NCBI GenBank assembly: GCA_949289935.1
Contig: CASEQD010000002.1
Coordinates: 1,847-65,846, forward strand
Length of the DNA: 64,000 bases
Direction of reading: 5' to 3'
From: an uncultured Pseudomonadota bacterium
GTDB taxonomy: Bacteria > Pseudomonadota > Alphaproteobacteria > RF32 > CAG-239
Of the stretch, positions 9,853 to 26,784 are shown piece by piece; position 1 is the first letter of the stretch; each line of letters starts with the position of its first letter. The notes below the pieces were generated by a model. It saw only the letters and a program-made list of their open reading frames with translations, ran no database searches and was not told the origin of the DNA. Made by a program: the position numbers and the translations under genes.

Positions 9853-9879
9853 GCGGGGAGTTTTCTTCGCTTTTTTTTT
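9853..9879 (+). terminator. putative intrinsic terminator after infB
   Basis: A short GC stem with two G-U pairs (GCGGGG/CTTCGC) followed by T9. Confidence 0.4.
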
Positions 9880-9880
9880 G

Positions 9881-9908
9881 TTGACTTTTGTCTAATAAGG
9901 CGTAGTAT
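9881..9908 (+). promoter_or_regulatory. sigma70-like promoter of the ORFan at 9949
   Basis: TTGACT, a 16-nt spacer, then TAGTAT. The TTGACTTTTGTCTAA part is identical to 17907-17921. Confidence 0.4.
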
Positions 9909-9948
9909 ACCTTACGATATTTTATTATTTATTTAAATTATTAAACAT

Positions 9949-10491
9949 ATGAAAAAATTTTTTGAAATTCTGAACGCAATCGGTTTGTACAAAGCAAAAC
10001 AGGAAGGGTGTTTTTCACAAAAGCAGCAGCAAAAGCCTGTTGTTGAGGAAATTGAAATTTTTGACGGAAAAGAATATCCTTTTGAGTTGGTGTATGAGGA
10101 TGACAGTGTTTCGAACGTGTTTACTTCCGGAAAGAAAATTAAGGGTGTGATTTTGTCTCAGAACGGCAGGCATTTGTTTGTCGGGCGTTTTTTTTCCCGC
10201 CGGAAGCTTACTCAGGGCAAGGCCGCGGAATATTGTAAAAAAATTTCGTTTCGGGGAAAAATGTGCCGTCAGATGAATGAAGATGAGCTGAGGTATTTGT
10301 GCAATGAAAATGCGGCGTTGTTGAATGACGCTCCGGGGATTTTACTGATTCCGGATGATTTTGTCTGGACTGAAGTTCCGGTTCCTGCTTATCGGGGTTT
10401 TTATCTGGTTGTAAATTTACAGACAGGAATGGCTGCCTGGAAAAACGGCGCCTATTATTGTTATGCCGTGCCGGTTTGCAGTTTGGATTAA
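9949..10491 (+). CDS. hypothetical protein with DUF1566/Lcl-C-like motifs and no signal peptide
   Basis: KAAEYCKKISFRGKMCRQMNEDELRYL resembles the eA..yC....WRLPt..EL signature. VWTEV...VVNLQTGMAAWKNG...YAVPVC resembles the C-terminal half of that domain. Confidence 0.4.
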   Translation: MKKFFEILNAIGLYKAKQEGCFSQKQQQKPVVEEIEIFDGKEYPFELVYEDDSVSNVFTSGKKIKGVILSQNGRHLFVGRFFSRRKLTQGKAAEYCKKISFRGKMCRQMNEDELRYLCNENAALLNDAPGILLIPDDFVWTEVPVPAYRGFYLVVNLQTGMAAWKNGAYYCYAVPVCSLD

Positions 10492-10502
10492 GTAAAAAAT
10501 TG

Positions 10503-10535
10503 AAAAAAAGCTTCGGAAGTTTCCGAAGCTTTTTT
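10503..10535. terminator. bidirectional intrinsic terminator
   Basis: A7-GCTTCGG-loop-CCGAAGC-T6, sitting between convergent genes. Confidence 0.6.
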
Positions 10536-10551
10536 GTTGTTGTTAAGTTTT

Positions 10552-10857
10552 TTAGAATTCTATAACTTGATATGTTCCGCTTGTTTTACCTGAACCGTTT
10601 TTGAAAGTTGTGTATAGTTCATGTAAATAATTGCCTCCGCAAGATAAAAACCAAATAGAATTCTGGTCAAATTCTGTTGAAGAGTATACATTAGTCAGAT
10701 ACCCATTACCGGCATAATCGTAATTATGGCAGATTTTCGCTCCCAGTTTTTCGAATACGCTGTGGTTTCCAAATATCATGCATTTACAATTTTCTTCTTC
10801 ATCTGCCGGTATAATACCTCTGCTGCCGGACAGATTCAGCAAGGATATTTTTTTCAC
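10552..10857 (-). CDS. short DUF1566-like protein (C-terminal-half homolog of the secreted family); GTG start
   Basis: 101 aa ending ...YSSTEFDQNSIWFLS...GTYQVIEF. Compare WSSTEY...AWAW...VWPVIEF in the neighbouring paralog. It has no signal peptide and is divergent from paralog A. Confidence 0.35.
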   Translation of the reverse strand: MKKISLLNLSGSRGIIPADEEENCKCMIFGNHSVFEKLGAKICHNYDYAGNGYLTNVYSSTEFDQNSIWFLSCGGNYLHELYTTFKNGSGKTSGTYQVIEF

Positions 10858-10860
10858 CTC

Positions 10861-11145
10861 TGTATGAAATTAATGATTGAACACTTGTGAAATTCATGCT
10901 ACACTAAAACCAGTGATGATAAAGTGTGGAGGATGAAATGCGTGTGATTCTTTCCGCCGGCAAAAGGATATATTTTACCCTGCTGGCTTTTTACCCTGCT
11001 GGCTTCTTCTTTTATGTTCCCGGTTTCCGCTTTTGCCCAGTGCGTGAAAAATGAAAATTGTGCGGCGTTAGGCTATGATTCGACAACAGCATGCGATAAC
11101 GGCATCAAATGCCCGTTTGGGGAATATTGGGCGTGTCCCGAACCT
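10861..11145 (+). repeat. conserved 5' module of the secreted-protein family, copy A (promoter, 5'UTR, signal peptide, first Cys motif)
   Basis: Near-identical to the reverse complement of 19177-19451 and 44735-45002. It includes TTGAAC-17-TACACT (10877-10905), a GGAGG RBS and ATG 10938. Confidence 0.8.
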
Positions 11146-11778
11146 GTCAAACCGGAAGGCGCCGTCCTCGGTCAGTGTAACGGGTATGCCAAAAACTGCA
11201 AAATCGGCGATATTCTTTATACGGACGGTATCTGTTCCGCCGATGTCGTTTCCGGTAAAACCCCGATTGCCGTCGTCGTTTATATCGGCGGGGATGGTTG
11301 TGGCCAGGCTTTGGCGTTGGAAAATTTGGGTAAAATGGTTTGGTCTACGGAAAATGTTAATATTCCGGAACTGGAAAATTTTTGGAATAAAGCTGAAAGT
11401 AATTACAGCAGTTGTAAAAATACACACGCTGTTTTAGAATACAGTAATGAAAAATATAAAAATGCGGCTTCACAATATTATCCTGCTTTTAAGGCTGTTA
11501 ACGATTATACACCATCGATTATCCCTGAAACCAAGGGTAAATGGTGTCTGCCGGCCGGCGGTGTATTGGACAGTATTTCCAAAAATACAAAAATCATAGG
11601 TACTGCTTTGGTGAAAACAGGTAAAGATAATTTTAATGTTTCCGGATGGTTGACCCTATGGTCATCAACGGAGTATACTGATAATACGGCATGGGCATGG
11701 ACATTAACAGGGGAGTTATCTCATGGTTCCACTTTTAAAAATTCTGACATATATGTCTGGCCGGTAATTGAGTTTTAA
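10938..11778 (+). pseudogene. secreted Cys-rich DUF1566-like protein, paralog A, frameshifted in the signal peptide
   Basis: From ATG 10938 the frame ends at TGA 11052-11054. Deleting one 16-bp unit joins it in frame to ORF 11014-11778 (MFPVSAFAQCVKNENCAALGY...WCLPAGGVL...LWSSTEY...VWPVIEF). Confidence 0.65.
10973..11004. repeat. perfect 16-bp tandem duplication (TTTTACCCTGCTGGCT x2)
   Basis: Read directly from the sequence. The other two paralogs carry a single unit at the homologous site. Confidence 0.95.
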
Positions 11779-11794
11779 AATTTGATATATACCA

Positions 11795-11829
11795 ACAGAA
11801 AACGCTTCCGGAGAGGAAGCGTTTTCTGT
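11795..11829. terminator. bidirectional intrinsic terminator
   Basis: A perfect 15-bp stem, ACAGAAAACGCTTCC / GGAAGCGTTTTCTGT, with loop GGAGA and a T-run on the + side. It lies between convergent genes. Confidence 0.7.
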
Positions 11830-11833
11830 TGTT

Positions 11834-14668
11834 TTATTTCCGTTCGGTTTTATCCATCGGCAGGGGGTCTTTTGAACCGCTGTTGTAGAGGATGGCATTG
11901 CTGATTTCGGAATTCTTAACCGGAATGTCTTTAATCTGTTTTCCGCAGATTTCCAGTCCGACACTCTTTATTGCGGTGGCAATCGGCAGGAACAGGTCGG
12001 CATTTTGTCCGGCTTTCTGTCCGGTATGAGCCAAACCGGCGATGGTGCCGTGCTGGTCGATCAGAGCTCCGCCGAGCGTGATATCCTGAACGAAAGTATC
12101 AACAATAATTTCGGTGCCGCGGTCTTCGGAATAACGGTAGCCGCTGACTTTTCCGGAATTTTCGAGATAGCCTTCACCGGTATCAAAGTCCAGAATGCCG
12201 AGGGTCAGATAAGTTTCCTGACTAATCGGCGGCAGATCGAGGTTCAGAGACAGCGGTGTGTAGGCGGTTTTCTTTTCCATGAACAACAGGGCAACGTTTT
12301 TCTTCGGGTTAATCCGGACAGCATGTCCTTTAAATTTGACACCGTTGATGGTTTGCAGTTCATAAGTATTGTTATCTTTGGTGATTAAATCCGCCGAGGT
12401 CAGGACAAACTGGTCTGAGATAATCAGACCGGCGCCTTTCCGTCCTTTGTTGTTGGCAATGGAAATGATTGAAGCGCGGATTTTGTAAACATCTTCAGGC
12501 GTTAACGGCGCGTCATAAGCCGGGCGTTCGATTATGCAAAGGCTGTTTTGCGCATCAAGGGCGCTCTTATCTTCGACCGGCAGAGATACCCATGTTTCTT
12601 TGGTGACGGAACCGGTTGCCTCGACACCGCCTTTTTCTTCAATATCAAGATCAATGTTATTGGCAATTTTGCAACCTTCAGGATCATGGGCGCAATCGCC
12701 GAACATGGTTTGTTTGTCGCAGCCGCCATAGAATTTGTTGTCTTCACAACCGCGATAGAGCTTATTGTCTTCGCAGCCGCGGTAGAGTTTATTATTGCAG
12801 TCGCAATCAGGGCCGAACAATGTCATATTATTGCACGGCGTTTCCGGTTTGGGCAGCGGCGGAACGGGCAGGGGAATCGTACCGCCCGGGTTTTCCATGG
12901 TTACAGTGTTTAAGTCCACTTCAATTTCGGCGGCATTTTCAATAACTTCTTTTTGTCCGTAGCGTTTTTCCGGCGCTTCAGGCAACAGGCTGATATCCAG
13001 AGGTTCGGACGGACGTTCTTTTTCGAGCAAATCAACAGCATTGACGGGTGCCGGTTCTTCTATTGTCGTTACCACGGCAGAGATGGTTTTTGTTGTCGTT
13101 TCTGCTACAGGCAGAGGCACGGGAGGCGTCGGAACGGCCGGTGTCGGCAGGGAAACTTCGACCGGTTCTTTTTCAATAACGGTTGTTTCAATTTTTTCTT
13201 TAACGATTATGGGTTCGCTCTTTTCCAGCGGCAGAGGCGCCGGCGGCGTTTTGACAATGCTTCCGTCCGATTGTTTTTGAACAACGGAACCATCGGAAAG
13301 TTTTGCCACGCTGGTCGGAACCGGGAGTTGTTCTTTAAGATAATCCGGTTTGATCAGAGGAGAAGGCGCTGCCGGTTCCGGTACTTTTACTTTTTCCGCA
13401 GGTTTGTCGGGGGTGTAAATATATTTGCTGGTTTGTCCGGCTTCAATGTCGTGTTTTGTGTATTGACACTTCAGCGGATTGACTTCACGTTCGTGTTCAA
13501 TGTAGGCAATTCTCTGGTTTTCTTTTTCCGCAGGACTTAGACGGTGTGTCAGTTGTTTTTGGAAACCCGGGTGGTTGCCGAGGTTGTTGGCCGCATCGGC
13601 AAAGGCTCTTTCCACCAGAAGGATTTCACCGTTTTGTTCGCCGCGCTTCAGTTCGCCGTAACCGTTGGTTTCTCCGCTCCAATAGGCTTTTGTTTTGTTT
13701 ATGTCGGTGATTGTCCATTTAACTGTGATTTCGGAGGAGCCGGTGCGCCGGTCTTCACGGATGCTGTTGTCCCAGTCATATTCATCACAGACGTTCATGA
13801 AGTAATTGGTGATTTCCGCCGTAACGAGATATTCAGGGAGCGGGCTGGGCGTATCTTCCGTACAGACATCATCCGGAATTTTTATGAAATTGTAGCATTC
13901 TTTAAGTTCATTTTCGAAAACAGAGATGAGACGCATGTTTTGCCGCAGCAGCCGTCCCTGATCCAGAATAGCTTCTTTGCTGAAACGGCGGCAGCCGAAA
14001 ATGCGGAAGCGGTAATTGCCGAGTTTTTGTGGAAAGGCGTCATTTAAATCATCGCCGTTTAAACGAAAATCAACCCATTCCAACTGGATGGGGGCGAATT
14101 TTTTGCATTGATTATGAATGCTGCGGTAGACATCTCTCCGGCCGACGGTGATGTAGTTGTTTACGAAATTTTCCCGCCGGGGGGCGATTTCTTCTGCTGT
14201 AATCCGACGCTTTTTTACCGGTTTGCAGACGGCTTTTTTAGGGGCTGGTTTTACTTTGACGCAGCCGCGCATTTCATCCGAAGAACAACCGTGGCCGGGA
14301 AAAATGCTGTTGTCCTGTTTTTTTGTTGATTCGCAACAGGTGCCGCCGAATATACTGCCGTCACGGTAGGTTTTTCCCGTGCTTTTAACATTGACTACCG
14401 GTTGCGGACGACGTTGTTCCAACCGTGTGTTTATGCGGCTGTCGGCTTCTCCGGAGAAGGAAATTTCTTTGGGGCGGGCTTCGTCGAAAAAGCCCATGGA
14501 GCGGCTTAATCCCGTATATTCTGTACGGACGGTGCGACTGCCGGCCGGTGTTTCTTCGCGGAAAGAGTTGCCGTATTGGGAAGCCATGCTTTCGGAGAAT
14601 GCCGCACTGCATAAGGACAAAGCCATGGCAGAACAGGCCAAGAGTTTGAAACACCGTGTGATTTTCAT
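11834..14668 (-). CDS. large secreted or lipoprotein-like protein with a Pro-rich linker, Cys-rich repeats and a C-terminal trypsin-like (S1C-type) domain lacking the catalytic triad
   Basis: 944 aa. Signal/lipobox-like N-terminus (KLLACSAMALSLCSAAFS), a PxP-rich middle and NKLYRGCED repeats. The C-terminus reads GAGLIISDQFVLTSADL / NVALLF / TLGGALIDQHGTIAGL, which mimics the GSGFxI..TNxHV / DxALL / GNSGGPL blocks. Confidence 0.6.
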   Translation of the reverse strand: MKITRCFKLLACSAMALSLCSAAFSESMASQYGNSFREETPAGSRTVRTEYTGLSRSMGFFDEARPKEISFSGEADSRINTRLEQRRPQPVVNVKSTGKTYRDGSIFGGTCCESTKKQDNSIFPGHGCSSDEMRGCVKVKPAPKKAVCKPVKKRRITAEEIAPRRENFVNNYITVGRRDVYRSIHNQCKKFAPIQLEWVDFRLNGDDLNDAFPQKLGNYRFRIFGCRRFSKEAILDQGRLLRQNMRLISVFENELKECYNFIKIPDDVCTEDTPSPLPEYLVTAEITNYFMNVCDEYDWDNSIREDRRTGSSEITVKWTITDINKTKAYWSGETNGYGELKRGEQNGEILLVERAFADAANNLGNHPGFQKQLTHRLSPAEKENQRIAYIEHEREVNPLKCQYTKHDIEAGQTSKYIYTPDKPAEKVKVPEPAAPSPLIKPDYLKEQLPVPTSVAKLSDGSVVQKQSDGSIVKTPPAPLPLEKSEPIIVKEKIETTVIEKEPVEVSLPTPAVPTPPVPLPVAETTTKTISAVVTTIEEPAPVNAVDLLEKERPSEPLDISLLPEAPEKRYGQKEVIENAAEIEVDLNTVTMENPGGTIPLPVPPLPKPETPCNNMTLFGPDCDCNNKLYRGCEDNKLYRGCEDNKFYGGCDKQTMFGDCAHDPEGCKIANNIDLDIEEKGGVEATGSVTKETWVSLPVEDKSALDAQNSLCIIERPAYDAPLTPEDVYKIRASIISIANNKGRKGAGLIISDQFVLTSADLITKDNNTYELQTINGVKFKGHAVRINPKKNVALLFMEKKTAYTPLSLNLDLPPISQETYLTLGILDFDTGEGYLENSGKVSGYRYSEDRGTEIIVDTFVQDITLGGALIDQHGTIAGLAHTGQKAGQNADLFLPIATAIKSVGLEICGKQIKDIPVKNSEISNAILYNSGSKDPLPMDKTERK
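12714..12791 (-). repeat. in-frame 27-nt tandem repeats encoding NK(L/F)Y(R/G)GC(E/D) units
   Basis: 12738-12764 and 12765-12791 are near-identical. 12714-12737 is a shorter, diverged third unit. Confidence 0.8.
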
Positions 14669-14681
14669 TTAATTTTCTCCA

Positions 14682-16205
14682 TTATTTTCTCCGGTCGGGT
14701 AAAGCTCTGCGGTAAGACAAAGCTTCAGCTATATGCAGTTTAAGCACATTTTCATTATTTTGCAAGTCTGCAATTGTTCTTGCTAACCGTAAAATGCGAT
14801 GGTAAGCGCGGGCGGAAAGATTGTTTTTGTCGGCAAAAGCAATCAAAAGCGCTTCGGCGTCGTTGTCCAGCCGTACGGCTTGTTCCAGCAAGCTGCCTTT
14901 CAGTTCGGCATTTGTGTGCAGTTCAGGATGTCCGAAACGGCGGAATCTTTCGGTTTGGATGTTGCGGGCGGCAACAACCCTTTTTAAGATTTCAGCCGAA
15001 GTTTCACCGGTTTTGATATCGGCAATTTCCCAGGGACTAACGGCAGGAACTTCAATTTGTATGTCTATGCGATCCAGCAGAGGACCGGATATCCGCGCCT
15101 GATATTCTTCGGCACATTTCGGAGCACGGGAGCATTCAAAGCGGGGATTGCCCAAATTGCCGCACCGGCAAGGGTTCATTGCCGCGATAAGCTGAAATTT
15201 TGCCGGATAGGTTGTGTGAGCGTTGACGCGGGATATAGTGATGCTGCCATTTTCCAGAGGCTGACGCAGGGCTTCCAATGTCGCCCGGTTGAATTCGGGA
15301 AGCTCGTCCAAGAACAAAACGCCGTTGTGGGCGAGAGAAATTTCGCCCGGTTCAGCCCGCCGTCCGCCGCCGACCAGTGCAGGCGTCGATGCATTATGAT
15401 GCGGCGCCCGGAAAGGACGTTCAAAACAAAGCTGTCCTTCTTTCAGAATGCCGGCAACGGAGTGAATCATGCTGGTTTCAAGCGCTTCTTCGGCCGTGAG
15501 CGGCGGCAGAATTCCCGGTAATCTGGCGGCAAGCATGCTTTTCCCGGCACCGGGCGGGCCGATCATGAGCATGTTGTGTCCGCCTGCAGCCGCAATTTCC
15601 AATGCTTTTTTTGCACTTTCCTGACCTTTGACATCTTTCATGTCGGGATGTCTGAGAGACGGCATTTTATGCGGCCGGCCGGGCGGCGGGATGAGTTGAG
15701 CGCCCTTGAAGTGGTTGATGAGCGCCAGAAGCGACGGCGCCGCTATGATGTTTTTTAAGCCGGACCACGCTGCTTCGGCTCCCTGTGCTTCGGGGCAGAT
15801 GAGCCCCAGGTTTTGTTCATTGGCTTTGATTGCGACGGGGAGAGCTCCGTTAACGGGAAGAATGTTTCCGTCCAGGCTTAATTCGCCCAGAACAAGATAT
15901 CCGGAAAGTTCTTCCGAAGGGATGATGCCCATTCCGCACAGCAGTCCCAGAGCGACAGGCAAGTCAAAATGCGCTCCTTCTTTTAACAAATCGGCCGGCG
16001 CGAGGTTGACAATAATGCGTTTGGCCGGGACGGACAGTCCCAGCGAACTGAGCGCGGCGCGTACGCGTTCGCGGCTTTCCGCCACGGATTTATCCGGCAG
16101 GCCGACAATGGAAAATGCCGGCATTCCCGAAGAAAGTTGTACCTGGAGGTCAACATTTATAACATCCAGCCCGTTGAAAGTTATCGTATTGATTCTGGAC
16201 AGCAT
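14682..16205 (-). CDS. yifB: YifB/ComM family Mg-chelatase-like AAA+ ATPase
   Basis: 507 aa with a Lon-protease-like N-domain, Walker A GPPGAGKS, GVLFLDELPEF and a typical C-terminal helical domain. Confidence 0.9.
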   Translation of the reverse strand: MLSRINTITFNGLDVINVDLQVQLSSGMPAFSIVGLPDKSVAESRERVRAALSSLGLSVPAKRIIVNLAPADLLKEGAHFDLPVALGLLCGMGIIPSEELSGYLVLGELSLDGNILPVNGALPVAIKANEQNLGLICPEAQGAEAAWSGLKNIIAAPSLLALINHFKGAQLIPPPGRPHKMPSLRHPDMKDVKGQESAKKALEIAAAGGHNMLMIGPPGAGKSMLAARLPGILPPLTAEEALETSMIHSVAGILKEGQLCFERPFRAPHHNASTPALVGGGRRAEPGEISLAHNGVLFLDELPEFNRATLEALRQPLENGSITISRVNAHTTYPAKFQLIAAMNPCRCGNLGNPRFECSRAPKCAEEYQARISGPLLDRIDIQIEVPAVSPWEIADIKTGETSAEILKRVVAARNIQTERFRRFGHPELHTNAELKGSLLEQAVRLDNDAEALLIAFADKNNLSARAYHRILRLARTIADLQNNENVLKLHIAEALSYRRALPDRRK

Positions 16206-16211
16206 GTTTGG

Positions 16212-16553
16212 TTACCACCTGGGCGTTCTTTCATATTCCCTCCAACGGCGGGTGGGGTTGGTTTCTCTGGTGAGAAAATCATAATTTGCCGTTTTATAAG
16301 GGATATCGCGGAAACGGACGTAGTTTTTCTTTTCAAAACTTCTGGCGCAGCTTTCGGCTGAGGAAAAAGCCGTGCGGTAGCAATGAACGATGTTTCTGGA
16401 AACGGGTTCCAGCAGGCTGATTGATTCAGGAACATTGACATAGTCTGCCGGAGCTGGGATGTACCGGATTGTTTTTCCGCCAGGCGTAAACCAGGCACAG
16501 GAACTTCCTGCCAGCAGGGTGCATACCGCAACCATAATTTTGAACTTTGACAT
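16212..16553 (-). CDS. putative small lipoprotein
   Basis: Signal peptide with lipobox-like LLAGSSC. It lies 6 nt upstream of yifB on the same strand. Confidence 0.45.
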   Translation of the reverse strand: MSKFKIMVAVCTLLAGSSCAWFTPGGKTIRYIPAPADYVNVPESISLLEPVSRNIVHCYRTAFSSAESCARSFEKKNYVRFRDIPYKTANYDFLTRETNPTRRWREYERTPRW

Positions 16554-16664
16554 TTGTTGTTTATTTCCCGTTAGTTTTTTAGTTGAATTTAGCAGAAAAT
16601 AATTAATATATCATAAACGCATCGGGGATGAAGGGTGCGAAAAAATGTTTTTTATAAAAAAAGC

Positions 16665-16692
16665 TTGCAAAATAAAGTTTTTGGTGTATATT
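16665..16692 (+). promoter_or_regulatory. sigma70-like promoter of rpsF-rpsR-rplI
   Basis: TTGCAA, a 16-nt spacer, then TATATT, about 90 nt upstream of rpsF. Confidence 0.4.
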
Positions 16693-16782
16693 ACGCCCGT
16701 TCCTTGCTCGCAAAAAGCGGGCTATACAATAGAACCAGCCCGGTTTCCGGGCATTTGTTGAGAATCCATAAGGAGATTTTGT

Positions 16783-17112
16783 ATGACTAATTATGAAAGC
16801 GTGCTGATTGCACGTCAGGATTTGGGCGCCTCCCAAGTCAGCAGCATTGTCGATGAACTGACAAATGTTGTTAAAAAAGAAGGCGGCGAAGTTGTCAGAG
16901 TTGATAACTGGGGTTTGAAAAATCTGGCTTACCGCATTAAGAAAAACCGCAAAGGCCATTATGTTTTGATGAACATTACCGCTCCGGCCGGGGCTATTGC
17001 CGAACTGGAACGGGTTATGCGCTTTAACGAAGATATTATCCGTTATATGACGGTTAAAGTCGACGAATTCAGCGAAGTTTCGTCGTCCGAAAAAGAAGCT
17101 GCGGAAGAATAG
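16783..17112 (+). CDS. rpsF: 30S ribosomal protein S6
   Basis: YESVLIARQD... plus an acidic C-terminus, and the rpsF-rpsR-rplI gene order. Confidence 0.9.
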   Translation: MTNYESVLIARQDLGASQVSSIVDELTNVVKKEGGEVVRVDNWGLKNLAYRIKKNRKGHYVLMNITAPAGAIAELERVMRFNEDIIRYMTVKVDEFSEVSSSEKEAAEE

Positions 17113-17124
17113 GAGGTTAAGACA

Positions 17125-17352
17125 ATGGCTAAACAGGTATTTTTCAGAAGAAAGAAAACTTGTCCGTTTTCCGGTGAAGATGCTTTGAAGATTGATTATA
17201 AAGACGTTAAGCTTCTTTCAAGATATATTTCGGAAAAAGGAAAAATCATTCCCAGCCGCATTACTGCGGTTTCCGTTAAAAAGCAGAGAGAACTGGCCCG
17301 CGCCATCAAACGCGCCCGCTATATCGGTCTGCTTCCGTTTGTGGCTGATTAG
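17125..17352 (+). CDS. rpsR: 30S ribosomal protein S18
   Basis: [35 protein letters not shown] motif. Confidence 0.9.
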
Positions 17353-17366
17353 GAAGGAGAGAAAAT

Positions 17367-17852
17367 ATGGAAATTATTCTTCTGGAACATGTAGACAAAC
17401 TGGGTAAAATGGGCGACAAGGTTACCGTTAAAAACGGTTATGCCCGTAACTATCTTCTGCCGAGCAAAAAGGCACTGCGCGCCACAGAGGCCAATGTTGC
17501 TTTTTATGAAAAGAAAAAGGCAGAGCTTGAAGCCCACAATAAGGCTTTGTTTGACGAGGCTTCCAAAAAAGCCGAGGCTCTCAAAGGCTACAGCGCGGTT
17601 CTTATCCGTCAGGCTGCCGAAACCGGTCAGCTGTATGGTTCCGTTACCATTCGCGATATTGCCGCTGCTATTAAAGAATCCGGTTTTGAAGTTGAACGCC
17701 GCTGCGTTTTTCTTGATAAGCCGATTAAGGATCTGGGAATTTACGAAGTTAAGCTGAATCTTCATCCGGAAGTTACTCAGACAATTTTGGTGAATGTTGC
17801 CAGAACTGATGATGATGCCAAAAAACAGGCTAAGGCTTACGAAAATAACTAG
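17367..17852 (+). CDS. rplI: 50S ribosomal protein L9
   Basis: MEIILLEHVDKLGKMGDKVTVKNGYARNYLLP N-terminal domain. Confidence 0.9.
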   Translation: MEIILLEHVDKLGKMGDKVTVKNGYARNYLLPSKKALRATEANVAFYEKKKAELEAHNKALFDEASKKAEALKGYSAVLIRQAAETGQLYGSVTIRDIAAAIKESGFEVERRCVFLDKPIKDLGIYEVKLNLHPEVTQTILVNVARTDDDAKKQAKAYENN

Positions 17853-17874
17853 TTTGTTTTTTGTCGGTTTTGAA

Positions 17875-17905
17875 GCAGGGTGCTCAGGTACTCTGCTTTT
17901 TTTTT
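17875..17905 (+). terminator. intrinsic terminator after rplI
   Basis: GCAGGGT / ACTCTGC stem (one G-U pair), 8-nt loop, then T9. Confidence 0.6.
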
Positions 17906-17906
17906 G

Positions 17907-17935
17907 TTGACTTTTGTCTAAATTTTAGATATAAA
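17907..17935 (+). promoter_or_regulatory. sigma70-like promoter of the ORFan at 17976
   Basis: TTGACT, a 17-nt spacer, then TATAAA. The first 15 nt are identical to 9881-9895. Confidence 0.5.
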
Positions 17936-17975
17936 GGGAATGATATTGTATTTTTTTAATTATAATTATAGAATT

Positions 17976-18428
17976 ATGAAAAAGAAAAAATTTCAAGGAA
18001 GTGTCAAATTTGACATTTTGTATGCCGGTGGTGAAATTTCGGAAAATTTGATTCCGGGGAAGAAAATTGAAGCAGTTGCTTATAACGGGTATGCAGTTTG
18101 GGCAGAAGATGTTCCGGAGTGGTTTACCAGCGAGGAAGCGGCTGAAAAGGTGAAGAATTTTTCTATCGGCGGGCAGGTTTGCAATTTGGGGCCTGATGGA
18201 TTTTGGACATCAATTAAGTTTGTCTCGGATGAGTTGAAACAGTTTATGTTAGGAATTCGTGTTGCACCCATCAGAGGCGCCGTGTGGACAGAAAAGCTTC
18301 GGGACGGGGACGTGAATAAAAGGGTTTTTGTTTATCCTGATACCGGGGAATTTGGCGCACAGAACAGAGAGACGAACTTTATCCGTCCGGTGGTTCGGGT
18401 GGCCGACTGTTCATTAAAGCGGATTTGA
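17976..18428 (+). CDS. hypothetical protein with DUF1566/Lcl-C-like motifs and no signal peptide
   Basis: WFTSEEAAEKVKNFSIGGQVC..., GAVWTEK...VFVYPDTGEFG...FIRPVVRV. It shares GKKI(K/E)(G/A)V with the 9949 protein. The start is the ATG at 17976; the ORF track begins at 17940. Confidence 0.4.
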   Translation: MKKKKFQGSVKFDILYAGGEISENLIPGKKIEAVAYNGYAVWAEDVPEWFTSEEAAEKVKNFSIGGQVCNLGPDGFWTSIKFVSDELKQFMLGIRVAPIRGAVWTEKLRDGDVNKRVFVYPDTGEFGAQNRETNFIRPVVRVADCSLKRI

Positions 18429-18449
18429 GATGAAATTTTTTGTGTAAAG

Positions 18450-18484
18450 AAAGGGTTCCGGGATTTGTCCGGAGCCCTTTTTTT
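18450..18484. terminator. bidirectional intrinsic terminator
   Basis: GGGTTCCGG / CCGGAGCCC stem (one G-U pair) followed by T7, with an A-rich 5' flank, between convergent genes. Confidence 0.6.
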
Positions 18485-18498
18485 GTTAGGAAGTGCTT

Positions 18499-19368
18499 CT
18501 AAAATTCAAAGTAGTTCCATACATATACACCTGTATCAAAAAGGTCTATGGGAATTTCTTGTAATTCCGATGTTTCAAATTTTAACTGAGATTCTGGAGC
18601 ATAATAATCCATTCTTATGCTGTATCCCCATAATACATTTGCGGCGCCTGATACGGCAGCGTTGGTGCTGAATGTCCGGAAATTTTGCCATTCGAAACCA
18701 TCAAAGGAGGTCAGTCCGGCTCTGGTAAGTTTGTGTGCTATTTCCGTTAAATTGTTTATTAGAGACTTTGCTACGCCGCCGGGTATGCCGATTTCCCGAA
18801 AATTTGAATTGAAATTGTTTTCAGCTTCGGTTTTTGTGAGTTTTGGCAGATTATTGTAATAATTGTTGGTTAAAACATAGGAATTAACGGATGATCTACC
18901 GATATAACCGGTTACGGCATATCCGCCGCCGCCGGGTTTTGTGTAGGCAACCACGCCTTTGGGGGTTTTTGAACTGTCAAAGTTGTAGGAGCAGGTATCG
19001 TCGGTGTAATAAATGTATCCGATTTGACATTTGGGAAGAGTTTTACTGCAGGTTCCGTTGTTCCATTCATATCCGGCAGCGCAGTTGCAGAAAGTGTATT
19101 TTCCATTGCAGGCTCCGGTTAACGGCTTTTTTTGATTGGTTCCGGTGCAAGTGTATTTGTATGACGTACCGCATTTTTCTTCCGGGCACGCCCAATACTC
19201 GCCGAACGGGCATTTCAGGCAATTTTCTTTGTTGGTTGTTTCTGTATAACCCAAAGCAGAACAGTCTTTATTTTCCACGCACTGGGCAAAAGCGGAAATT
19301 GGGAACATAAAAGAAGAAGCCAGCAGGGTAAAATATACCTTTTTGCCGGCGGAAAGAATCACACGCAT
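18499..19368 (-). CDS. secreted Cys-rich protein, paralog B (family N-terminal module with a divergent C-terminal region)
   Basis: MRVILSAGKKVYFTLLASSFMFPISAFA-QCVENKDCSALGY...KCPFGEYWACPEE. An AFA-Q signal-peptidase site is present, and the C-terminus ends ...VWNYFEF. Confidence 0.6.
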   Translation of the reverse strand: MRVILSAGKKVYFTLLASSFMFPISAFAQCVENKDCSALGYTETTNKENCLKCPFGEYWACPEEKCGTSYKYTCTGTNQKKPLTGACNGKYTFCNCAAGYEWNNGTCSKTLPKCQIGYIYYTDDTCSYNFDSSKTPKGVVAYTKPGGGGYAVTGYIGRSSVNSYVLTNNYYNNLPKLTKTEAENNFNSNFREIGIPGGVAKSLINNLTEIAHKLTRAGLTSFDGFEWQNFRTFSTNAAVSGAANVLWGYSIRMDYYAPESQLKFETSELQEIPIDLFDTGVYVWNYFEF

Positions 19369-19451
19369 TTCATCCTCCTCCTCCACACTTTATCATCACT
19401 GATTTTAGTGTAACATGAATTTTCTAATTGTTCAATCATTATTTTCATGCA
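19177..19451 (-). repeat. conserved 5' module of the secreted-protein family, copy B
   Basis: The reverse complement aligns with 10861-11145 and with the reverse complement of 44735-45002. It includes TTGAAC-17-TACACT and the signal-peptide codons. Confidence 0.8.
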
Positions 19452-19498
19452 GAAATGAAAAAAATGAAGAGGATTTTTTTTGATTCATACCCCACCCG

Positions 19499-19518
19499 CC
19501 TCCCCTACTCAGGGGAGG
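19499..19518. repeat. perfect hairpin CCTCCCCT-ACTC-AGGGGAGG
   Basis: 8-bp stem with a 4-nt loop. The identical hairpin occurs at 45155-45174. Half-sites TACTCAGGGGAGG recur at 19533-19545 and 19663-19675. Confidence 0.85.
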
Positions 19519-19579
19519 AAAAATGGAGAGGATACTCAGGGGAGGGATATAAGGAGTAAAGCAAAGCTGCTTCGGTCAA

Positions 19580-19636
19580 CTGAATTGTAACGATTGTTTC
19601 CTTAGGCTGCCGCCTGTTCACAATCTAACAATTCAG
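19580..19636. other. long imperfect hairpin in an intergenic region
   Basis: cTGAATTGT (19580-19588) pairs with ACAATTCAg (19628-19636). GATTGT (19592-19597) pairs with ACAATC (19620-19625). The loop is 22 nt. Confidence 0.6.
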
Positions 19637-19701
19637 ACTCTGTCGTTGAAAAACAATTGATGTACTCAGGGGAGGAAACGATTGTTGCTTTTTGATTTTT
19701 C

Positions 19702-19730
19702 TTGATTATCAAAGGTTTTCACGTTATAAA
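19702..19730 (+). promoter_or_regulatory. sigma70-like promoter of rbfA-truB
   Basis: TTGATT, a 17-nt spacer, then TATAAA, 31 nt upstream of the rbfA ATG. Confidence 0.5.
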
Positions 19731-19760
19731 GTAAGCAGTTTTGATTTGAGGAGAAAATTT

Positions 19761-20150
19761 ATGGCAGAAAAAGAGCCGTCCCAGCGTCAGCTGCGGGTGG
19801 GACAGGAAATAAAGAAAATTATTGCCAACCAGATTCAGCGGGATGAAATTCGCAATCTGCAGGGAATTGATACGCTGGTTACGGTTATGGAAGTCAGGGT
19901 GTCGCCGGATTTGAAATATGCGACCGTATATGTGATTACCTCGGATAAAAGCACCGAACAGGCCGTTATCGGCGGATTGCAACTGGCGGCGAATTATTTG
20001 CGCAAAGTGATTATTTCCAAAACAGACCTGCGGTATGTGCCGGAGCTGAGCTTTCGGATAGACAAGACATTTGAAGAAGTCGACAAGATTGAAAAATTGT
20101 TAAGAGATCCGAAAGTTAAACAGGATTTGGATCACAAGGAACAGAATTAA
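19761..20150 (+). CDS. rbfA: ribosome-binding factor A
   Basis: RQLRVGQEIKKIIANQIQRDEIRN..., VTVMEVRVSPDLKYATVYV. GAGGAG RBS. The ORF track extends to 19692. Confidence 0.85.
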   Translation: MAEKEPSQRQLRVGQEIKKIIANQIQRDEIRNLQGIDTLVTVMEVRVSPDLKYATVYVITSDKSTEQAVIGGLQLAANYLRKVIISKTDLRYVPELSFRIDKTFEEVDKIEKLLRDPKVKQDLDHKEQN

Positions 20151-20160
20151 AAAGGTTTTT

Positions 20161-21069
20161 ATGAAGCATAATAAAGGCGAAGACATAAACGGCTGGCTGG
20201 TGGTGGATAAGCCGCGGGGTATGGGTTCAACCGAAGTGGTGCGGCGGACGAAGCGTTTGTTTCATGCTAAAAAGAACGGACATGCGGGGACGCTTGATCC
20301 TTTTGCCACGGGATTGCTTCCGGTGGCTTTCGGCGAGGCGACCAAGCTTTTGCCTTTTGTTACCGACGGGGTTAAAGAATATGAATTTGTTTTGCAGTTC
20401 GGCGCTTCGACGGATACGGATGATTCCGACGGGAAAGAAATTTCCCGTTGCGGAAAATTTCCGACCCGGGCGGAAATAGAGGCGGTTATTCCGTTTTTTC
20501 TGGGGCGGATTGTTCAGGTGCCGCCGGCTTATTCCGCAATTAAAATAAACGGCTGCCGTGCTTATGAACTGGCTCGAAAAGGAATCGAGACAGAACTTTC
20601 CGGACGCGAGGTGGAAATTTATGATTTGAAATTGACGGAAGAGCTTCCGAATCATCAGGCCAGATTTTATGTGAAGTGTTCAAAGGGAACTTATGTGCGT
20701 ACGCTGGGCAAAGATATTGCCCTTAAACTTGGTTCTTTGGGGTATTTGCAGGAGCTGCGGCGTACAAAATGCGGAATTTTTGATTTGAAGCATAAAATTT
20801 TGCTGGAAAATTTGGAAAATATCGTGTATGGTGAAGACCTTAAAAAGTTTTTGCTTCCGATTGAAACATTTCTGTGCGACATCACGGTTATTGCGGTTTC
20901 GGAAGCAGATGCCGCCAAACTCAGAAAAGGGCAGGCAATTTCTCCGAAGGCTTATGATGTGTCAAAGCCGGCAGGAGAGGAAGTTGTTGCTGTTTTTGAA
21001 GGAAAGCCGGCGGCAATAGTGCGAATCGATGAGCGGAAAATTGCTCCGGTTCGAGTGTTTAATCTTTAA
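20161..21069 (+). CDS. truB: tRNA pseudouridine(55) synthase TruB
   Basis: [13 protein letters not shown]..., [22 protein letters not shown] catalytic Asp motif. Confidence 0.9.
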
Positions 21070-21088
21070 AAAAATAAAGGAAATAAAG

Positions 21089-21361
21089 ATGTCGTCTATT
21101 ACAAGCGAAGAAAAAAAAGAAATTGTAAGCAAATTCGGTTTGAATCCGAATGATACGGGTTCTCCGGAAGTTCAGATTGCTATCTGGACAGCCAGAATCA
21201 ACAAGCTTATCGGGCATTTCAATGTTCATAACAAAGATTTGCATTCCCGTTTGGGCCTGATGAAAATGGTCAGCCGCCGCCGGCACCTTCTTGATTATCT
21301 GAAAGGTAAGGACAACAACAGATATCAGGAAATTATCAAAAAGCTGGATCTGCGTAAATAA
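21089..21361 (+). CDS. rpsO: 30S ribosomal protein S15
   Basis: [48 protein letters not shown]. Confidence 0.9.
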
Positions 21362-21371
21362 ATTTTAAAGT

Positions 21372-21420
21372 CGGGAGCCGTTCCGGCAGTTTTTGGCGGG
21401 GCTCCCGGCTTTGGTGTTTT
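21372..21420 (+). terminator. rpsO terminator / pnp leader hairpin
   Basis: CGGGAGCC (21372-21379) pairs with GGCTCCCG (21400-21407), followed by a T-rich tract. Confidence 0.5.
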
Positions 21421-21503
21421 GTTATAATTATTGTGCTTTATATTAAAATCCCGGAGCAGACCAATTTCGGGTGAGGTTTTATAAAGATGTTTGAAAAGAT
21501 GAA

Positions 21504-23642
21504 ATGAAAGGTAAAAGAAATATGGTCGAGTTGAATGTTTGCCGCAAAGAAATGGAATGGGGCGGCAGAAAGTTAGTGTTGGAAACAGGTAAAATTGCCA
21601 AACAGGCACAAGGAGCCGTGGAAGCAACTTACGGAGGAACGACGGTTTTGGCTACGGTATGTGCTGCGAAAGAGGCTGCGCCCGATCAGGATTTCTTTCC
21701 TTTAACCGTTAATTATCAGGAAAAATATTATGCGACCGGAAAAGTTCCGGGCGGCTTTATGAAAAGGGAGGGAAAACCCTCCGAGCGCGAGGTGTTGATT
21801 TCGCGTTTGATAGACCGTCCTATCCGCCCGTTGTTTCCCGATGCTTTTAAAAATGAAGTACAGGTTATTTGTACGGTTTTGTCGCATGACCAGCAGACGG
21901 ATTCAGACGTGGTGGCAATGATTGCCGCTTCGGCTGCGCTGGCTGTTTCCGGAATTCCTTTTCTCGGGCCTATCGGTGCGGCTAAAATCGGTTATAAAGA
22001 CGGGCAGTATATTTTGAATCCGACTGTTGAACAACAGAAAGAATCGTTGCTTGAGCTTTCTGTTGCCGGAACATCGGAAGGTGTGCTGATGGTGGAATCG
22101 GAAGCTCAGGAATTGTCCGAAGAAACTATGCTGGGCGCCGTTATGTTTGGTTTTGAAAATTTTCAGCCGGTTATTAAGATGATTAATGAAATGGTTGAAG
22201 AAGCCGGCAAACCCAAATGGGAAACGCCTGTGTTTCCGCCGGAATTTGATGCTTTATATGAAAAGCTGGAAAAAGGTTTTATCTCCCGGTTTGAAGAAGC
22301 TTTTAAGGAAACGGATAAACTGAAACGCGGCGAATTGGTCGGGCAGGCTTCGGAAGCTTTTAAAGAAACGCTGGATCCGGAAAATGAGTTTGAGCAAAAA
22401 TATGCGCAGGACGCAATTGAAAAATTGATGCATAAAGTTGTCAGGGAGAAGGTTTTGACGACAGGACGCCGGATTGACGGGCGTGATACCAAAACCGTCC
22501 GGCCTATCTGGTGTGAAGTTGATGTTTTGCCAATGACGCACGGATCCGCCATTTTTACCCGCGGTGAGACGCAGGCTCTGGTGGTTACGACGCTGGGAAC
22601 GGGAGAAGACGCCCAGGTTGTCGACGGGTTGATGGATGAGTATAAGGAAGATTTTATGCTTAATTATAATTTTCCGCCTTTTTCCGTCGGGGAATGCGGC
22701 CGTTTGGGGAGTCCGGGACGTCGTGAAATCGGTCATGGAAAGCTGGCCTGGCGCGCCATTCATCCGATGATGCCGAAAAACAAAGATACCTTTCCCTATA
22801 CAGTCCGTGTTGTTTCGGAAATTTTGGAATCCAACGGTTCTTCTTCCATGGCGACAGTTTGCGGTTCGACTTTGTCGCTGATGGCAGCCGGCGTTCCTTT
22901 GGCAAAACCTGTTGCCGGTATTGCGATGGGGCTGATTAAGGAAGATGACGGCCGGGTTGCCGTGTTGACGGATATTCTGGGAGATGAAGATCATCTCGGG
23001 GATATGGACTTTAAGGTTGCCGGAACGAAAGACGGGGTTACGGCTTTGCAAATGGATATTAAGATTACATCCATTACCAAAGAGATTATGCAGACGGCTT
23101 TGGCTCAGGCACACGAAGGACGTATACATATTCTGGGCGAAATGGCAAAAGCAATTGCCGAGCCTCGTCCGCATGTATCTGACAGGGCGCCGCGGATTGT
23201 TGCCATCAAGATTCCGGTTGATAAAATCCGGGAAGTTATTGGTTCCGGTGGAAAAGTTATCAGGGAAATTACCGATACAACACATTGCAAAATTGATATT
23301 AATGATGACGGGGTTATCAAGATTGCCTCTTTGAAAAAAGAGGACGGGGATGCCGCACTTAACTGGATTATGGGAATTGTGGCCGAGCCGGAAGAAGGTA
23401 AGATTTATCACGGTGTGATTACCAAAATTATGGATTTCGGCGCATTTGTCCGTTTCCTTGGACAGACGGAGGGGCTGGTTCATATTTCCGAGGTGAAAAA
23501 TGAACGTATTGCTTCCGTTTCTGATTTCTATAAGGAAGGCGATCAGATCTGGGTTAAATGCCTAGGGACGGATAACCGCGGAAAGGTTAAACTTTCGGCT
23601 AAGAGAGTGAATCAGGAAACAGGGGAAGATTTGGAAAAATAA
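21504..23642 (+). CDS. pnp: polyribonucleotide nucleotidyltransferase (PNPase)
   Basis: 712 aa with two RNase PH domains, a KH domain and an S1 domain ([18 protein letters not shown]). The true start may be the ATG at 21522 (MVELNV...). Confidence 0.95.
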
Positions 23643-23661
23643 GTTTTCCCGTTTAGTTAAA

Positions 23662-23686
23662 GGTCCGGTAAAAACGGGCCTTTTTT
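23662..23686 (+). terminator. intrinsic terminator after pnp
   Basis: GGTCCG / CGGGCC stem (one G-U pair) followed by T6. Confidence 0.55.
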
Positions 23687-23687: not shown

Positions 23688-23716
23688 TTGACTTTTTTAT
23701 GGATTTTTTTTAAGGT
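23688..23716 (+). promoter_or_regulatory. possible promoter of the ORFan at 23756
   Basis: TTGACT, a 17-nt spacer, then TAAGGT. It abuts the terminator T-tract, as at 9881 and 17907. Confidence 0.35.
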
Positions 23717-23755
23717 AAGGCGTTTTTTGTATTATTAATTTAATTTTTTATTGTT

Positions 23756-24232
23756 ATGTTTTTCTTTATTATTTTTGTTTTGCTGCTGTTAATTTGCTGG
23801 AGCAGCCTGCTGGTTATTCTGCTGAAAAAGCCTGTTTGCAATTTTAAGTCCAGAAACAGGATTATTTTCTTTTTGTATGGTGTTGCTTTGGTTAATGTCA
23901 TCATTGCGGCAATCTGTGATTCTTATTTTTTCTTTCTGAACGGAAATTGCCTTGTCGTTGCATTGCTTTCAGTCCTTCCGGTTATGTTTGGAAGTATTTT
24001 GCTGAAAAGGTATTTTTCGGAGAAATTGTCGGAAAGTTTTTTTCCGTTCAGAGTCGGTCGGATTGTTGACGGGCGTATTTTCGGAAAGGTTTTGGTGGAT
24101 GACCTTCATATGGTGGTTGACGCCGAATTGGTTGCTTTTCCCGATGAGATGCCTCTTGTCGGGCAGAAATTGTGGGTTGACGTGAAAAACAGCAATGTTG
24201 ATCTGCCGTTTGCGACGGTTGTTTTGCATTAA
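23756..24232 (+). CDS. hypothetical membrane protein (about 3 TM segments plus a small C-terminal beta-rich domain, possibly NfeD-like)
   Basis: Hydrophobic N-terminal 85 aa. The C-terminus reads GRIVDGRIFGKVLVDD...LVGQKLWVDV. It has its own promoter-like and terminator-like signals. Confidence 0.4.
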   Translation: MFFFIIFVLLLLICWSSLLVILLKKPVCNFKSRNRIIFFLYGVALVNVIIAAICDSYFFFLNGNCLVVALLSVLPVMFGSILLKRYFSEKLSESFFPFRVGRIVDGRIFGKVLVDDLHMVVDAELVAFPDEMPLVGQKLWVDVKNSNVDLPFATVVLH

Positions 24233-25490: not shown

Positions 25491-25529
25491 AGTTTGAAAT
25501 TATTATTGTGTTATTTAATTGTTATAATT

Positions 25530-26099
25530 ATGGAAAAAAATCGTGTCGAAGAAATTTTTCAGTCCCGAATAGTCAGATTGGGAGCTAAATGGCGTATTCT
25601 ATTGTTGTTGCGTCAAAATCTGCAATGTGATTCTATGGGCGAATACCAATGTTTTTTGAGCGAAGATGAGGTGCTCAGCCTGATAAAACGCGTGGATTGT
25701 TCTGATCCGCAAAGAAAGACAAGGGATTTTTGGGATCAGTGTTATGAGCGGTTGCTGCCGTTTATTGCGGAAAAACCAACGGATGGGCTGCTGAAATATA
25801 TTATGCTTCACGGGTATTTGCTCAATACTTTTTTCCGGGTTCTCGGTGAAGATGAATTGCGTCATAACAGACCTTTACAGCGTAAGTTATGTGAAATTGA
25901 AAAAGGCGAATGCGGAATGTTTACACCTAAATTCAGCTTTTTGTTTTTTCATTATGCGGTGCGTTATGATTTGGATGATGACTTGCTGGATGAATTGTTG
26001 CGTGATGAACAAAAATATGGCTGTTTGTTGTCAGTTTATAAAGATTCCAGACATGTGAAGAATACAACCGGAATTTTGGGAGGCCGGGGGCTTTGGTGA
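25530..26099 (+). CDS. hypothetical protein, tandem paralog 1
   Basis: Aligns by eye along its length with the 26239 protein (NRVE..., LSE(D/E)EV(L/M)SL(I/L)(K/E)RVD(C/R)SDP, ERL(L/I)PF, YGYL, PKF, RYDL). No family was recognised. Confidence 0.45.
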   Translation: MEKNRVEEIFQSRIVRLGAKWRILLLLRQNLQCDSMGEYQCFLSEDEVLSLIKRVDCSDPQRKTRDFWDQCYERLLPFIAEKPTDGLLKYIMLHGYLLNTFFRVLGEDELRHNRPLQRKLCEIEKGECGMFTPKFSFLFFHYAVRYDLDDDLLDELLRDEQKYGCLLSVYKDSRHVKNTTGILGGRGLW

Positions 26100-26129
26100 A
26101 AAAATCTTTGTTCTTTGGGATGGTTTAAG

Positions 26130-26158
26130 GCCGGCGGTAAATATCTGCCGGCTTTTTT
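26130..26158 (+). terminator. intrinsic terminator
   Basis: GCCGGCGG / CTGCCGGC stem followed by T6. Confidence 0.55.
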
Positions 26159-26161
26159 GTA

Positions 26162-26190
26162 TTGAAAAGCGGGAAGTTATCGGTTATAAC
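26162..26190 (+). promoter_or_regulatory. sigma70-like promoter, copy 1 of a duplicated promoter
   Basis: TTGAAA, a 17-nt spacer (AGCGGGAAGTTATCGGT), then TATAAC. It is a near-copy of 26820-26848. Confidence 0.55.
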
Positions 26191-26238
26191 AGAGGCAGTG
26201 TTGAAATTATTGTTGTATTATTTTTAATTATAAAAATT

Positions 26239-26775
26239 ATGAAAAATAAAGAAAAAAACCGGGTAGAAAAAGCTTTGCGCTATCGTTTATTTGGTTTGGG
26301 CAAGTGGTTTCGGATTTCAAAGTTGTTTGGCGAGACTTTAATTGATGACGGGGAAAAGAAAACCTGTCTTTTATCGGAAGAAGAGGTTATGAGTCTGCTT
26401 GAACGGGTAGATAGATCCGATCCGAAAAAACGGAAGATTGATTGGTTTGACCTTTGTTTTGAACGGTTAATTCCTTTTTTGCCGATGTTTCCATCGGATG
26501 AGCCTTTAGTGTTTATTTCCAAGTACGGATATTTGGAACAGACTTTTTGGAATGTTCTGGATAATGACGGAAATATCGGAAGAGATGTTTTTTTTCAGTA
26601 CAGATTGTGCGAGGTGACTTCCTCACGTAAAGCCGGGCTGTTTTATCCGAAGTTTGGCAATTTGCTTTTCGGATATATTCAGCGTTATGATTTATTGCCG
26701 CAGGTTAAAGATGCTTTGTTTGACAACCCGATGTATGCGAGAGTTGTTTTGTGTTATAAAACGGCGCGGTCATAA
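26239..26775 (+). CDS. hypothetical protein, tandem paralog 2
   Basis: See 25530-26099. Confidence 0.45.
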   Translation: MKNKEKNRVEKALRYRLFGLGKWFRISKLFGETLIDDGEKKTCLLSEEEVMSLLERVDRSDPKKRKIDWFDLCFERLIPFLPMFPSDEPLVFISKYGYLEQTFWNVLDNDGNIGRDVFFQYRLCEVTSSRKAGLFYPKFGNLLFGYIQRYDLLPQVKDALFDNPMYARVVLCYKTARS

Positions 26776-26784
26776 TGATGAAAG

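Follow-up and report, generated by a model that had tools for sequence, protein, structure and literature searches.

A/T-rich leaders without Shine-Dalgarno sites precede a class of lineage-specific genes in an alphaproteobacterium

In a 64,000-nucleotide (nt) stretch of DNA from an uncultured alphaproteobacterium of the CAG-239 lineage (hereafter the window; C2:1847-65846, contig CASEQD010000002.1 of an assembly of 1.72 Mb and 67 contigs), six ORFan genes, here named A to F, start behind A/T-rich leaders that lack a Shine-Dalgarno (SD) site. We found that leaders of this kind precede a whole class of genes across the genome, that they carry nucleotides phased to the ATG and, in part of the class, a 15-nt box, and that they are kept in relatives while the proteins behind them diverge. 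We propose, with a probability of roughly 0.55, that ribosomes start on these open, SD-less A/U leaders without pairing between SD and anti-SD. The first-pass annotation of the window had described the feature as an A/T-rich leader with a dyad. Its observation as a whole is partly confirmed: it is real, conserved and broader than was thought, and the dyad part is wrong.

Genes were taken from a home-made, simple codon-usage caller, which gave 1,455 genes with usable upstream sequence. A gene was placed in the strict A/T-leader class when the last 25 nt before its ATG were at least 88% A/T and the last 20 nt were free of GGA, GAG and AGG; the comparison set, hereafter SD genes, comprised the 723 of the 1,455 genes that have a 4-6-nt SD core. 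The strict class holds 76 genes and a loose one 125, i.e. 5-9% of the total, and the six genes named by the first-pass annotation understated this scope. The six leaders quoted there are all present in the window exactly as given, and GGAG, GAGG and AGGA are absent within 17 nt of the ATG in all six. The SD sites that had been set beside them were also found, both at the core genes gmk (ATG at 462), rpsF (16783) and rpsR (17125) and at the secreted paralogues (19368-, 44926- and 10938). The start calls of the class look sound: the ATG is the first start candidate in frame in 98 of the 125 loose-class genes, the median distance back to the preceding in-frame stop is 18 nt, and an SD-led alternative start occurs downstream in only 7.

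Aligned on the ATG, the strict-class leaders showed strong preferences at single positions, with A at -13 in 63/75, at -12 in 57/75 and at -3 in 58/68 (p from 1e-8 to 1e-12). Further preferences were A at -6 (45/73), T at -2 (61/73) and T at -1 (67/76). These choices of A versus T exceed what A/T richness alone can give. The SD genes showed a G peak at -12 to -7. The second codon was AAA or GAA in 43 of the 76 strict genes, and the predicted folding energy of the region from -30 to +33 was -3.3 kcal/mol in the class versus -8.3 kcal/mol in SD genes (p = 4e-28).

About one third of the leaders bear the box TATTATTAAYTTAAA, which starts at -24 to -29, near -26. With at most one mismatch, the genome holds 24 copies of TATTATTAATTTAAA, and 15 of them sit 20-40 nt before the ATG of a gene, versus a mean of 0.3 copies (maximum 2) for 100 permutations of the same composition. 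Such permutations fail to reproduce the box; outside leaders, with up to two mismatches, it stays at the permutation level (54 vs 55). A position weight matrix (PWM) trained on half of the leaders reached 6 bits or more in 29% of the other, held-out leaders and in 7% of shuffles, and 42 of the 227 genome copies of ATTATTAA start 19-29 nt before an ATG. A first, naive PWM iteration against the genome background drifted toward generic A/T richness and was replaced; the box statistics rest on permutation tests, an A/T-aware expectation-maximisation procedure and the held-out test. The reversed 9-mer was unusable as a control, because AATTATTAT itself belongs to the leader (AATTATT-ATG, 33 cases).

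The word TTGT(A/G)TTATT..TAATT, which had been proposed as common to four of the six leaders, proved to be the 5' part of the real box. Its spread among the six was more limited: D and E match the box with one mismatch, C matches more weakly, and A, B and F match poorly. The AATTATAATT-type dyad did not hold up as a general feature, being exact in only two of the six leaders and present at nine genome sites. Dyads with 5-nt arms numbered 98 in class leaders and 91 +/- 11 in shuffles, and palindromy in the leaders is a chance outcome of A/T-only sequence. The word TTATAATT is moderately enriched before the ATG (12 vs 3.0). As further observations on the box, G occupies its position 4 in 28% of aligned sites, and a variant, TTTTTATGTTTAAYTTA, lies at -25 to -30 in about 7-11 leaders beyond the window (C34, C21, C62, C19, C2:107056), where it makes a mini upstream open reading frame (ORF), Met-Phe-Asn-(Leu/Phe/Tyr)-stop, ending about 10 nt before the main ATG. 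The consensus sequences of CtrA (TTAA-N7-TTAA), the Fur box and IHF, compared with the box by eye and without a formal test, gave no fit.

The leaders are part of a regular unit. In the strong examples its order is a terminator T-tract, TTGACA, 16-18 nt, TAtAAT, 13-16 nt with G/C, the box, 9-13 nt of A/T and the ATG. Of the 76 strict genes, 47 have a sigma70-like promoter (9 or more of 12 matches) within 100 nt, versus 141 of the 723 SD genes; the median distance from the end of its -10 box to the ATG is 40 nt (interquartile range 34-46), and 38% of class genes, compared with 8-10% of other genes, have TTGACW between -84 and -55. Given this position of the promoter, the A/T stretch is best read as a predicted 5' untranslated leader of 25-45 nt, its length being taken from the promoter consensus. 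Promoters of the Bacteroidia type (TAnnTTTG) were looked for by eye, and none was seen. Class genes are also less often internal to operons, since a same-strand neighbour lies less than 60 nt upstream in 12% of them compared with 36% of SD genes. The class may well be made up of lineage-specific genes that are each expressed as a stand-alone unit.

An extended promoter word, GTTGACTTTTGTCTAA, which consists of the -35 box and the first nine spacer bases and shows GAC..GTC symmetry, is common to the cassettes of genes E and A (9880-9895 and 17906-17921), and five other species have retained it upstream of homologues with 30% identity (L002-L007). The pattern TTGAC-W3-7-TGTC is found upstream of 5.6% of A/T-leader genes and 0.1% of SD genes, and the word may be a transcription factor site.

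The genes behind the leaders are unlike the SD genes. The 125 loose-class genes represent 122 protein families. Paralogy therefore does not account for the shared leader, and descent from a common source by gene duplication is ruled out as its origin. They are shorter than SD genes (207 vs 273 amino acids, aa), have a slightly lower GC content (42.6 vs 44.9%) and are poorly adapted in codon use. The six proteins encoded behind the leaders of the window have no Pfam family, and two of them, P0002 and P0003, are paralogues. In the genome at large, a Pfam match was obtained for 1 of the 20 best box-bearing genes, which has an IalB domain, versus 8 of 10 size-matched SD genes (Fisher p = 6e-5). 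Relatives sampled included G011 (same genus, 34% GC), G017 (another genus of the same family, a 400-kb sample) and G019 (another family). A homologue was found in the G017 sample for 5% of strict-class and 26% of SD genes (p = 8e-6), and in the G011 sample for 18% and 27%, respectively. The scarcity of Pfam domains and of homologues in the other genus strongly supports the link with ORFans, and the class genes are fast-evolving and largely confined to the genus. For P0003, a close-relative search of 185,579 species genomes found nothing, and inspection by eye of the box-bearing proteins for a C-terminal signal in common, as a hint of type IV effectors, showed none. Elsewhere in the genome, a 306-aa membrane or coiled-coil ORFan (MKSIILISGA...) occurs in at least five copies (C5:6960, C7:39591, C9:36987, C28:906, C65) with near-identical promoter, perfect box and leader; several copies are at contig ends, and the repeat therefore probably breaks the assembly.

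The leaders persist in relatives. The whole class, with its promoter and box variants, is visible in G011 and G017, and G019 gives no evident sign of it. Most other genomes of the genus are enriched in the exact box, with about 4-22 hits versus 2-8 for the reversed control, the exceptions being G002, G004 and G013, where the control equals or exceeds it; beyond the genus, the family has some genera with enrichment and others at background. In orthologue pairs with G011, A/T-only, SD-less leaders are kept at protein identities of 28-64%, and homologues of P0005 in five other species, at about 30% identity, all keep TTGACTTTTGTCTAA, the -10 box and an SD-less A/T leader. The units have been inherited vertically within the genus, and their leaders have been inherited and selected.

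A similar pattern was found between pth and ychF, two genes that stand next to each other in 44 of 57 relatives. About ten relatives have a 580-720-nt insert there that carries one ORF, and in several gut lineages the A/T leader of this ORF begins directly after the pth stop codon. In G001, a member of the same genus, the first 22 nt of the post-pth leader are identical to the leader of gene B at 19 positions, while the proteins are 37-49% identical. These relatives are metagenome-assembled genomes from human, ruminant and chicken gut, Candidatus Scatocola faecigallinarum among them. The junction (25491-26889; L072-L091, L093-L172) is an insertion spot, which is occupied in several gut lineages by one or two fast-evolving ORFans from a single family and in others by SD-led glycosyltransferase-like genes.

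SD use is intact in this lineage, as the 16S rRNA of a same-genus relative carries CCUCC and SD cores precede 723 genes; and because core genes use the SD, two initiation regimes seem to coexist in one genome, split by gene age. The 16S was taken from G001 (two copies), the window's own assembly being without one. The two G001 genes (L010 and L011, on contigs C17 and C8) are mutually only about 80% identical, and one contig is probably mis-binned. A full-length rpsA is present (TIGR00717, 655 bits, above cut-off).

We propose that SD-independent initiation proceeds as follows. The sequence shows an upstream terminator that insulates the unit and a near-consensus sigma70-type promoter, which would drive an mRNA with an A/U-only, essentially unstructured and SD-less 5' leader of about 25-45 nt, whose open structure and position-specific nucleotides would help the ribosome to start. 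A-13 and A-12 would lie in the stretch predicted to be near protein S1 once the P site is occupied by the AUG (PMC6847099). A-6 and A-3 would act as 'Kozak-like' positions, and U-2, U-1 and an A-rich second codon may also assist. In leaders that have the box, UAUUAUUAAYUUAAA, with a start some 26 nt ahead of the AUG, the 3' half of the box would give the UUUAAA signal at -17 to -12, and its 5' half may be an extra lineage-specific element, either an enhancer (a standby or S1 site) or a dock for a shared post-transcriptional regulator. Three mechanisms had been offered by the first-pass annotation, namely an operator for a repressor or silencer, an S1-dependent A/U enhancer, and an internal promoter giving near-leaderless mRNAs. 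An enhancer of the S1 type is the best supported of the three, with binding of S1 to the leader putative; the operator is weakened and the near-leaderless promoter disfavoured.

Several observations weigh against SD-independent initiation as we propose it. The limits of the class depend on the thresholds, and its gene calls come from a home-made caller. A recognisable box is found in only about one third of the leaders, and no reader of its 5' half is known. The distance of the box from the -10 box, 13-16 nt, is held as tightly as its distance from the ATG, so that spacing cannot tell a role on RNA from one on DNA; the 5' end of the transcript is itself a prediction from promoter geometry. Finally, AUG is not depleted in the leaders, with 24 occurrences versus 5-23 for triplets of the same composition.

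The spacing from the promoter is what would be expected if the A/T box, roughly positions +7 to +22 of the transcription unit, were a DNA operator at which a common repressor or nucleoid-type silencer keeps the lineage-specific genes silent until a signal comes. It holds in nearly all strong examples; moreover, the presumed targets are AT-rich, fast-evolving accessory genes, the typical prey of silencers, repression would be useful at promoters of such unusual strength, and genes of IHF/HU-like and Fis-like proteins are present. MucR/Ros is the H-NS-like silencer of other Alphaproteobacteria. Its family (PF05443) gave no hit in the genome, although a Caulobacter control was positive, and tblastn with E. 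coli queries, a test of low sensitivity, found neither H-NS nor CsrA. Dyad symmetry is at the shuffle level, the strongest signals (A-13, A-12, A-3, T-2 and T-1) are phased to the ATG, and the leader of B is kept after the pth stop codon, where no convincing promoter fits, which indicates a role on the RNA. We regard an operator as unlikely. The box could instead be the RNA dock of one trans-acting factor, a small RNA with Hfq or an RNA-binding protein, that switches the orphan genes together, on or off, as a shared post-transcriptional regulon, SD-independence being mere background. A sequence-specific box of 15 nt indeed exceeds what generic A/U richness or S1 would need, it is conserved within the genus and in some genera beyond it, and hfq is present. 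Such a regulon is nevertheless doubtful, since two thirds of the class lack the box, no complementary partner stands out and copies outside leaders do not exceed permutations.

The same A/T letters might also be read as an internal promoter, with TAAAWT at -15 to -10 as the -10 box, A-3 as the transcription start and translation of the leaderless type from a 3-nt leader. T-A-A-A-W-T fits TAnnnT, A-3 is a purine at the right distance, and the enrichment of TTATAATT agrees with this; but no -35-like or TG element stands at the required place, terminators are followed directly by far better promoters, regularly placed 31-51 nt upstream, and the 5' half of the box would be left without a role, which makes this explanation quite improbable. 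The most sceptical account denies the leaders any dedicated function: young or imported genes would stand in A/T-rich spacer, an SD would not yet have evolved, and the shared words would be compositional. It accommodates genes that are short, slightly AT-richer, poorly codon-adapted and lineage-restricted. Permutations and shuffles nevertheless fail to give the box or the phased A/T pattern, and the leaders of orthologues persist while their proteins diverge to 28-64% identity; we hold this account to be very improbable.

The closest parallel to SD-independent initiation as proposed here comes from Bacteroidia. In Flavobacterium johnsoniae, which naturally lacks the SD, A at -3, -6, -12 and -13 emerged from ribosome profiling and reporters as positive determinants of initiation, and the predicted place of an A-run from -11 to -14 is near S1 (Baez et al. 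2019, PMC6847099). The class described here shares the A/U-rich, unstructured, SD-less start region and the same adenine positions, which argues that these positions reflect a general property of the bacterial ribosome. In contrast to Bacteroidia, it comprises only 5-9% of the genes, orphan ones, in an alphaproteobacterium that has retained SD use genome-wide (723/1,455); AUG is not depleted near the start, and U at -1 and -2 and the 15-nt box are additional. Its promoters are of the TTGACA/TATAAT type, from which the Bacteroidia consensus differs.

Other systems are similar in part. The A/U enhancers of E. coli usually assist an SD, whereas here there is no SD and a conserved, defined box stands at a fixed distance from the start. 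What the class has in common with the S1-dependent enhancers of E. coli leaders (Boni 1991 and Komarova 2005, as cited in PMC5397173) is the A/U-rich single-stranded leader, the presence of the S1 gene and the expected recruitment of 30S subunits without strong SD pairing. The epsilon element of phage T7 gene 10 (UUAACUUUA) is likewise a U/A-rich box before the start, and variants here read TTAACTTTA or TTAACTTAA. Pairing of epsilon with 16S rRNA was proposed, whereas the leader box pairs with 16S no better than permuted boxes do (-4.3 and -3.9 kcal/mol vs permuted means of -4.6 and -5.2 for the two G001 copies), and such pairing was rejected. The epsilon enhancer works together with an SD (PMC8748333). 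As in xenogeneic silencing by H-NS or MucR/Ros, AT-rich control regions precede lineage-specific genes; unlike there, the element is short and ATG-phased rather than a broad AT-rich patch, and genes of MucR and H-NS were not found. Like 'morons', each unit is one gene that comes with a promoter and a terminator of its own and is lodged between core operons (infB, rplI, pnp, pth/ychF), but no phage context or mobility signatures were seen, and inheritance within the genus is vertical.

The six units of the window follow this plan to different degrees; coordinates below refer to the plus strand unless stated otherwise, and a terminator lies directly upstream of A, C, D and E. E stands behind infB, whose intrinsic terminator (9847-9876) has a 13-pair stem and a T-run, the T-tract running into the -35 box of the promoter TTGACT-16 nt-TAGTAT (9881-9908). 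This promoter carries the extended word TTGACTTTTGTCTAA, which also stands before the 30%-identical homologues elsewhere. The leader box TATTATTTATTTAAA (9923-9937; one mismatch, start at -26) precedes ORFan E (P0005, 180 aa, without Pfam family; 9949-10491), and a terminator follows at 10504-10535. A stands behind rpsF-rpsR-rplI, the terminator of which (17872-17899) abuts the cassette. Its promoter, TTGACT-17 nt-TATAAA (10/12; 17907-17935), contains the word TTTTGTCTAA, and its A/T-only, SD-less leader (17943-17975) includes AATTATAATT and leads to ORFan A (P0001, 150 aa; 17976-18428). An in-frame ATG at 17940 lies 36 nt before the accepted start and only 4 nt past the -10 box; an extension from it would read MILYFFNYNYRI, encoded by the A/T leader. 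Translation of this extension is unlikely, and the ATG probably does not serve as a start.

D stands behind pnp, whose terminator (23659-23683) abuts the promoter region TTGACT-17 nt-TAAGGT (23688-23716). Its leader box TATTATTAATTTAAT (23730-23744; one mismatch, start at -26) precedes ORFan D (P0004, 158 aa, with a membrane-like N-terminus; 23756-24232), and the G011 orthologue (49% identity) has a box-like A/T leader. B and C lie between pth and ychF. The leader of B is a 39-nt A/T-rich, SD-less spacer directly after the pth stop codon (25491-25529), without terminator or convincing promoter, and is followed by ORFan B (P0002, 189 aa; 25530-26099), the paralogue of C. A terminator separates the two genes (26127-26155), after which come the cassette C promoter TTGAAA-17 nt-TATAAC (10/12; 26162-26190), the box-like A/T leader TTGTATTATTTTTAATTATAAAAATT (26213-26238; PWM score 7.4 bits) and ORFan C (P0003, 178 aa; 26239-26775). 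F, on the minus strand, adjoins a U32 peptidase gene. Its promoter, TTGACA-16 nt-TATATT (61082-61109), was read directly from the sequence; its short A/T leader (61053-61075) contains AATTATAATT and an out-of-frame mini-ORF, ATG ATA TTA TGA; and ORFan F itself (P0006, 202 aa; 60444-61052) was missed by our home-made gene caller.

Around these units, the infB-rbfA-truB-rpsO-pnp block (7341-23642), in which rbfA and rpsO were assigned by guess from position only, is broken after infB by some 10 kb that comprise ORFan E, secreted paralogues, the gene of a trypsin-like protein, a ComM-like gene (Mg-chelatase family) and rpsF-rpsR-rplI. A third SD-led secreted paralogue (MRVILSAGK...; 10938-11100) runs into in-frame stops after about 38 codons and looks like a pseudogene or frameshifted copy. 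Rfam 15 gave no match at gathering score across the 64-kb window.

In summary, SD-independent initiation on leadered mRNAs is known mainly as a whole-genome habit, as in Bacteroidia and Cyanobacteria, or from scattered cases, whereas here a sharply bounded class of genes with a proposed SD-independent start is found inside an SD-using proteobacterium. The type of initiation is itself known; new are the conserved box and the proposed restriction of such initiation, with A/U leaders, to orphan genes in a lineage of Alphaproteobacteria that otherwise uses the SD. Gene finders may mis-start or drop such genes, because SD sites and homologues are absent, and the leader is a positive sign that SD-less, homologue-less ORFs are real genes. 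The conserved box also offers a handle on the control of lineage-specific proteins in gut bacteria that are common and poorly known. More tentatively, this gut alphaproteobacterial family might keep a second, sequence-specific start code for its orphan proteome, made up of a portable strong promoter, UAUUAUUAAYUUAAA-N10-AUU-AUG and a dedicated reader. The reader may be a specialised use of S1 or an RNA-binding factor, and, as speculation only, some of the orphan proteins may be substrates of type IV secretion. If this were true, about 100 lineage-specific proteins would be adjustable as a block, independently of the SD-led translation of housekeeping genes.

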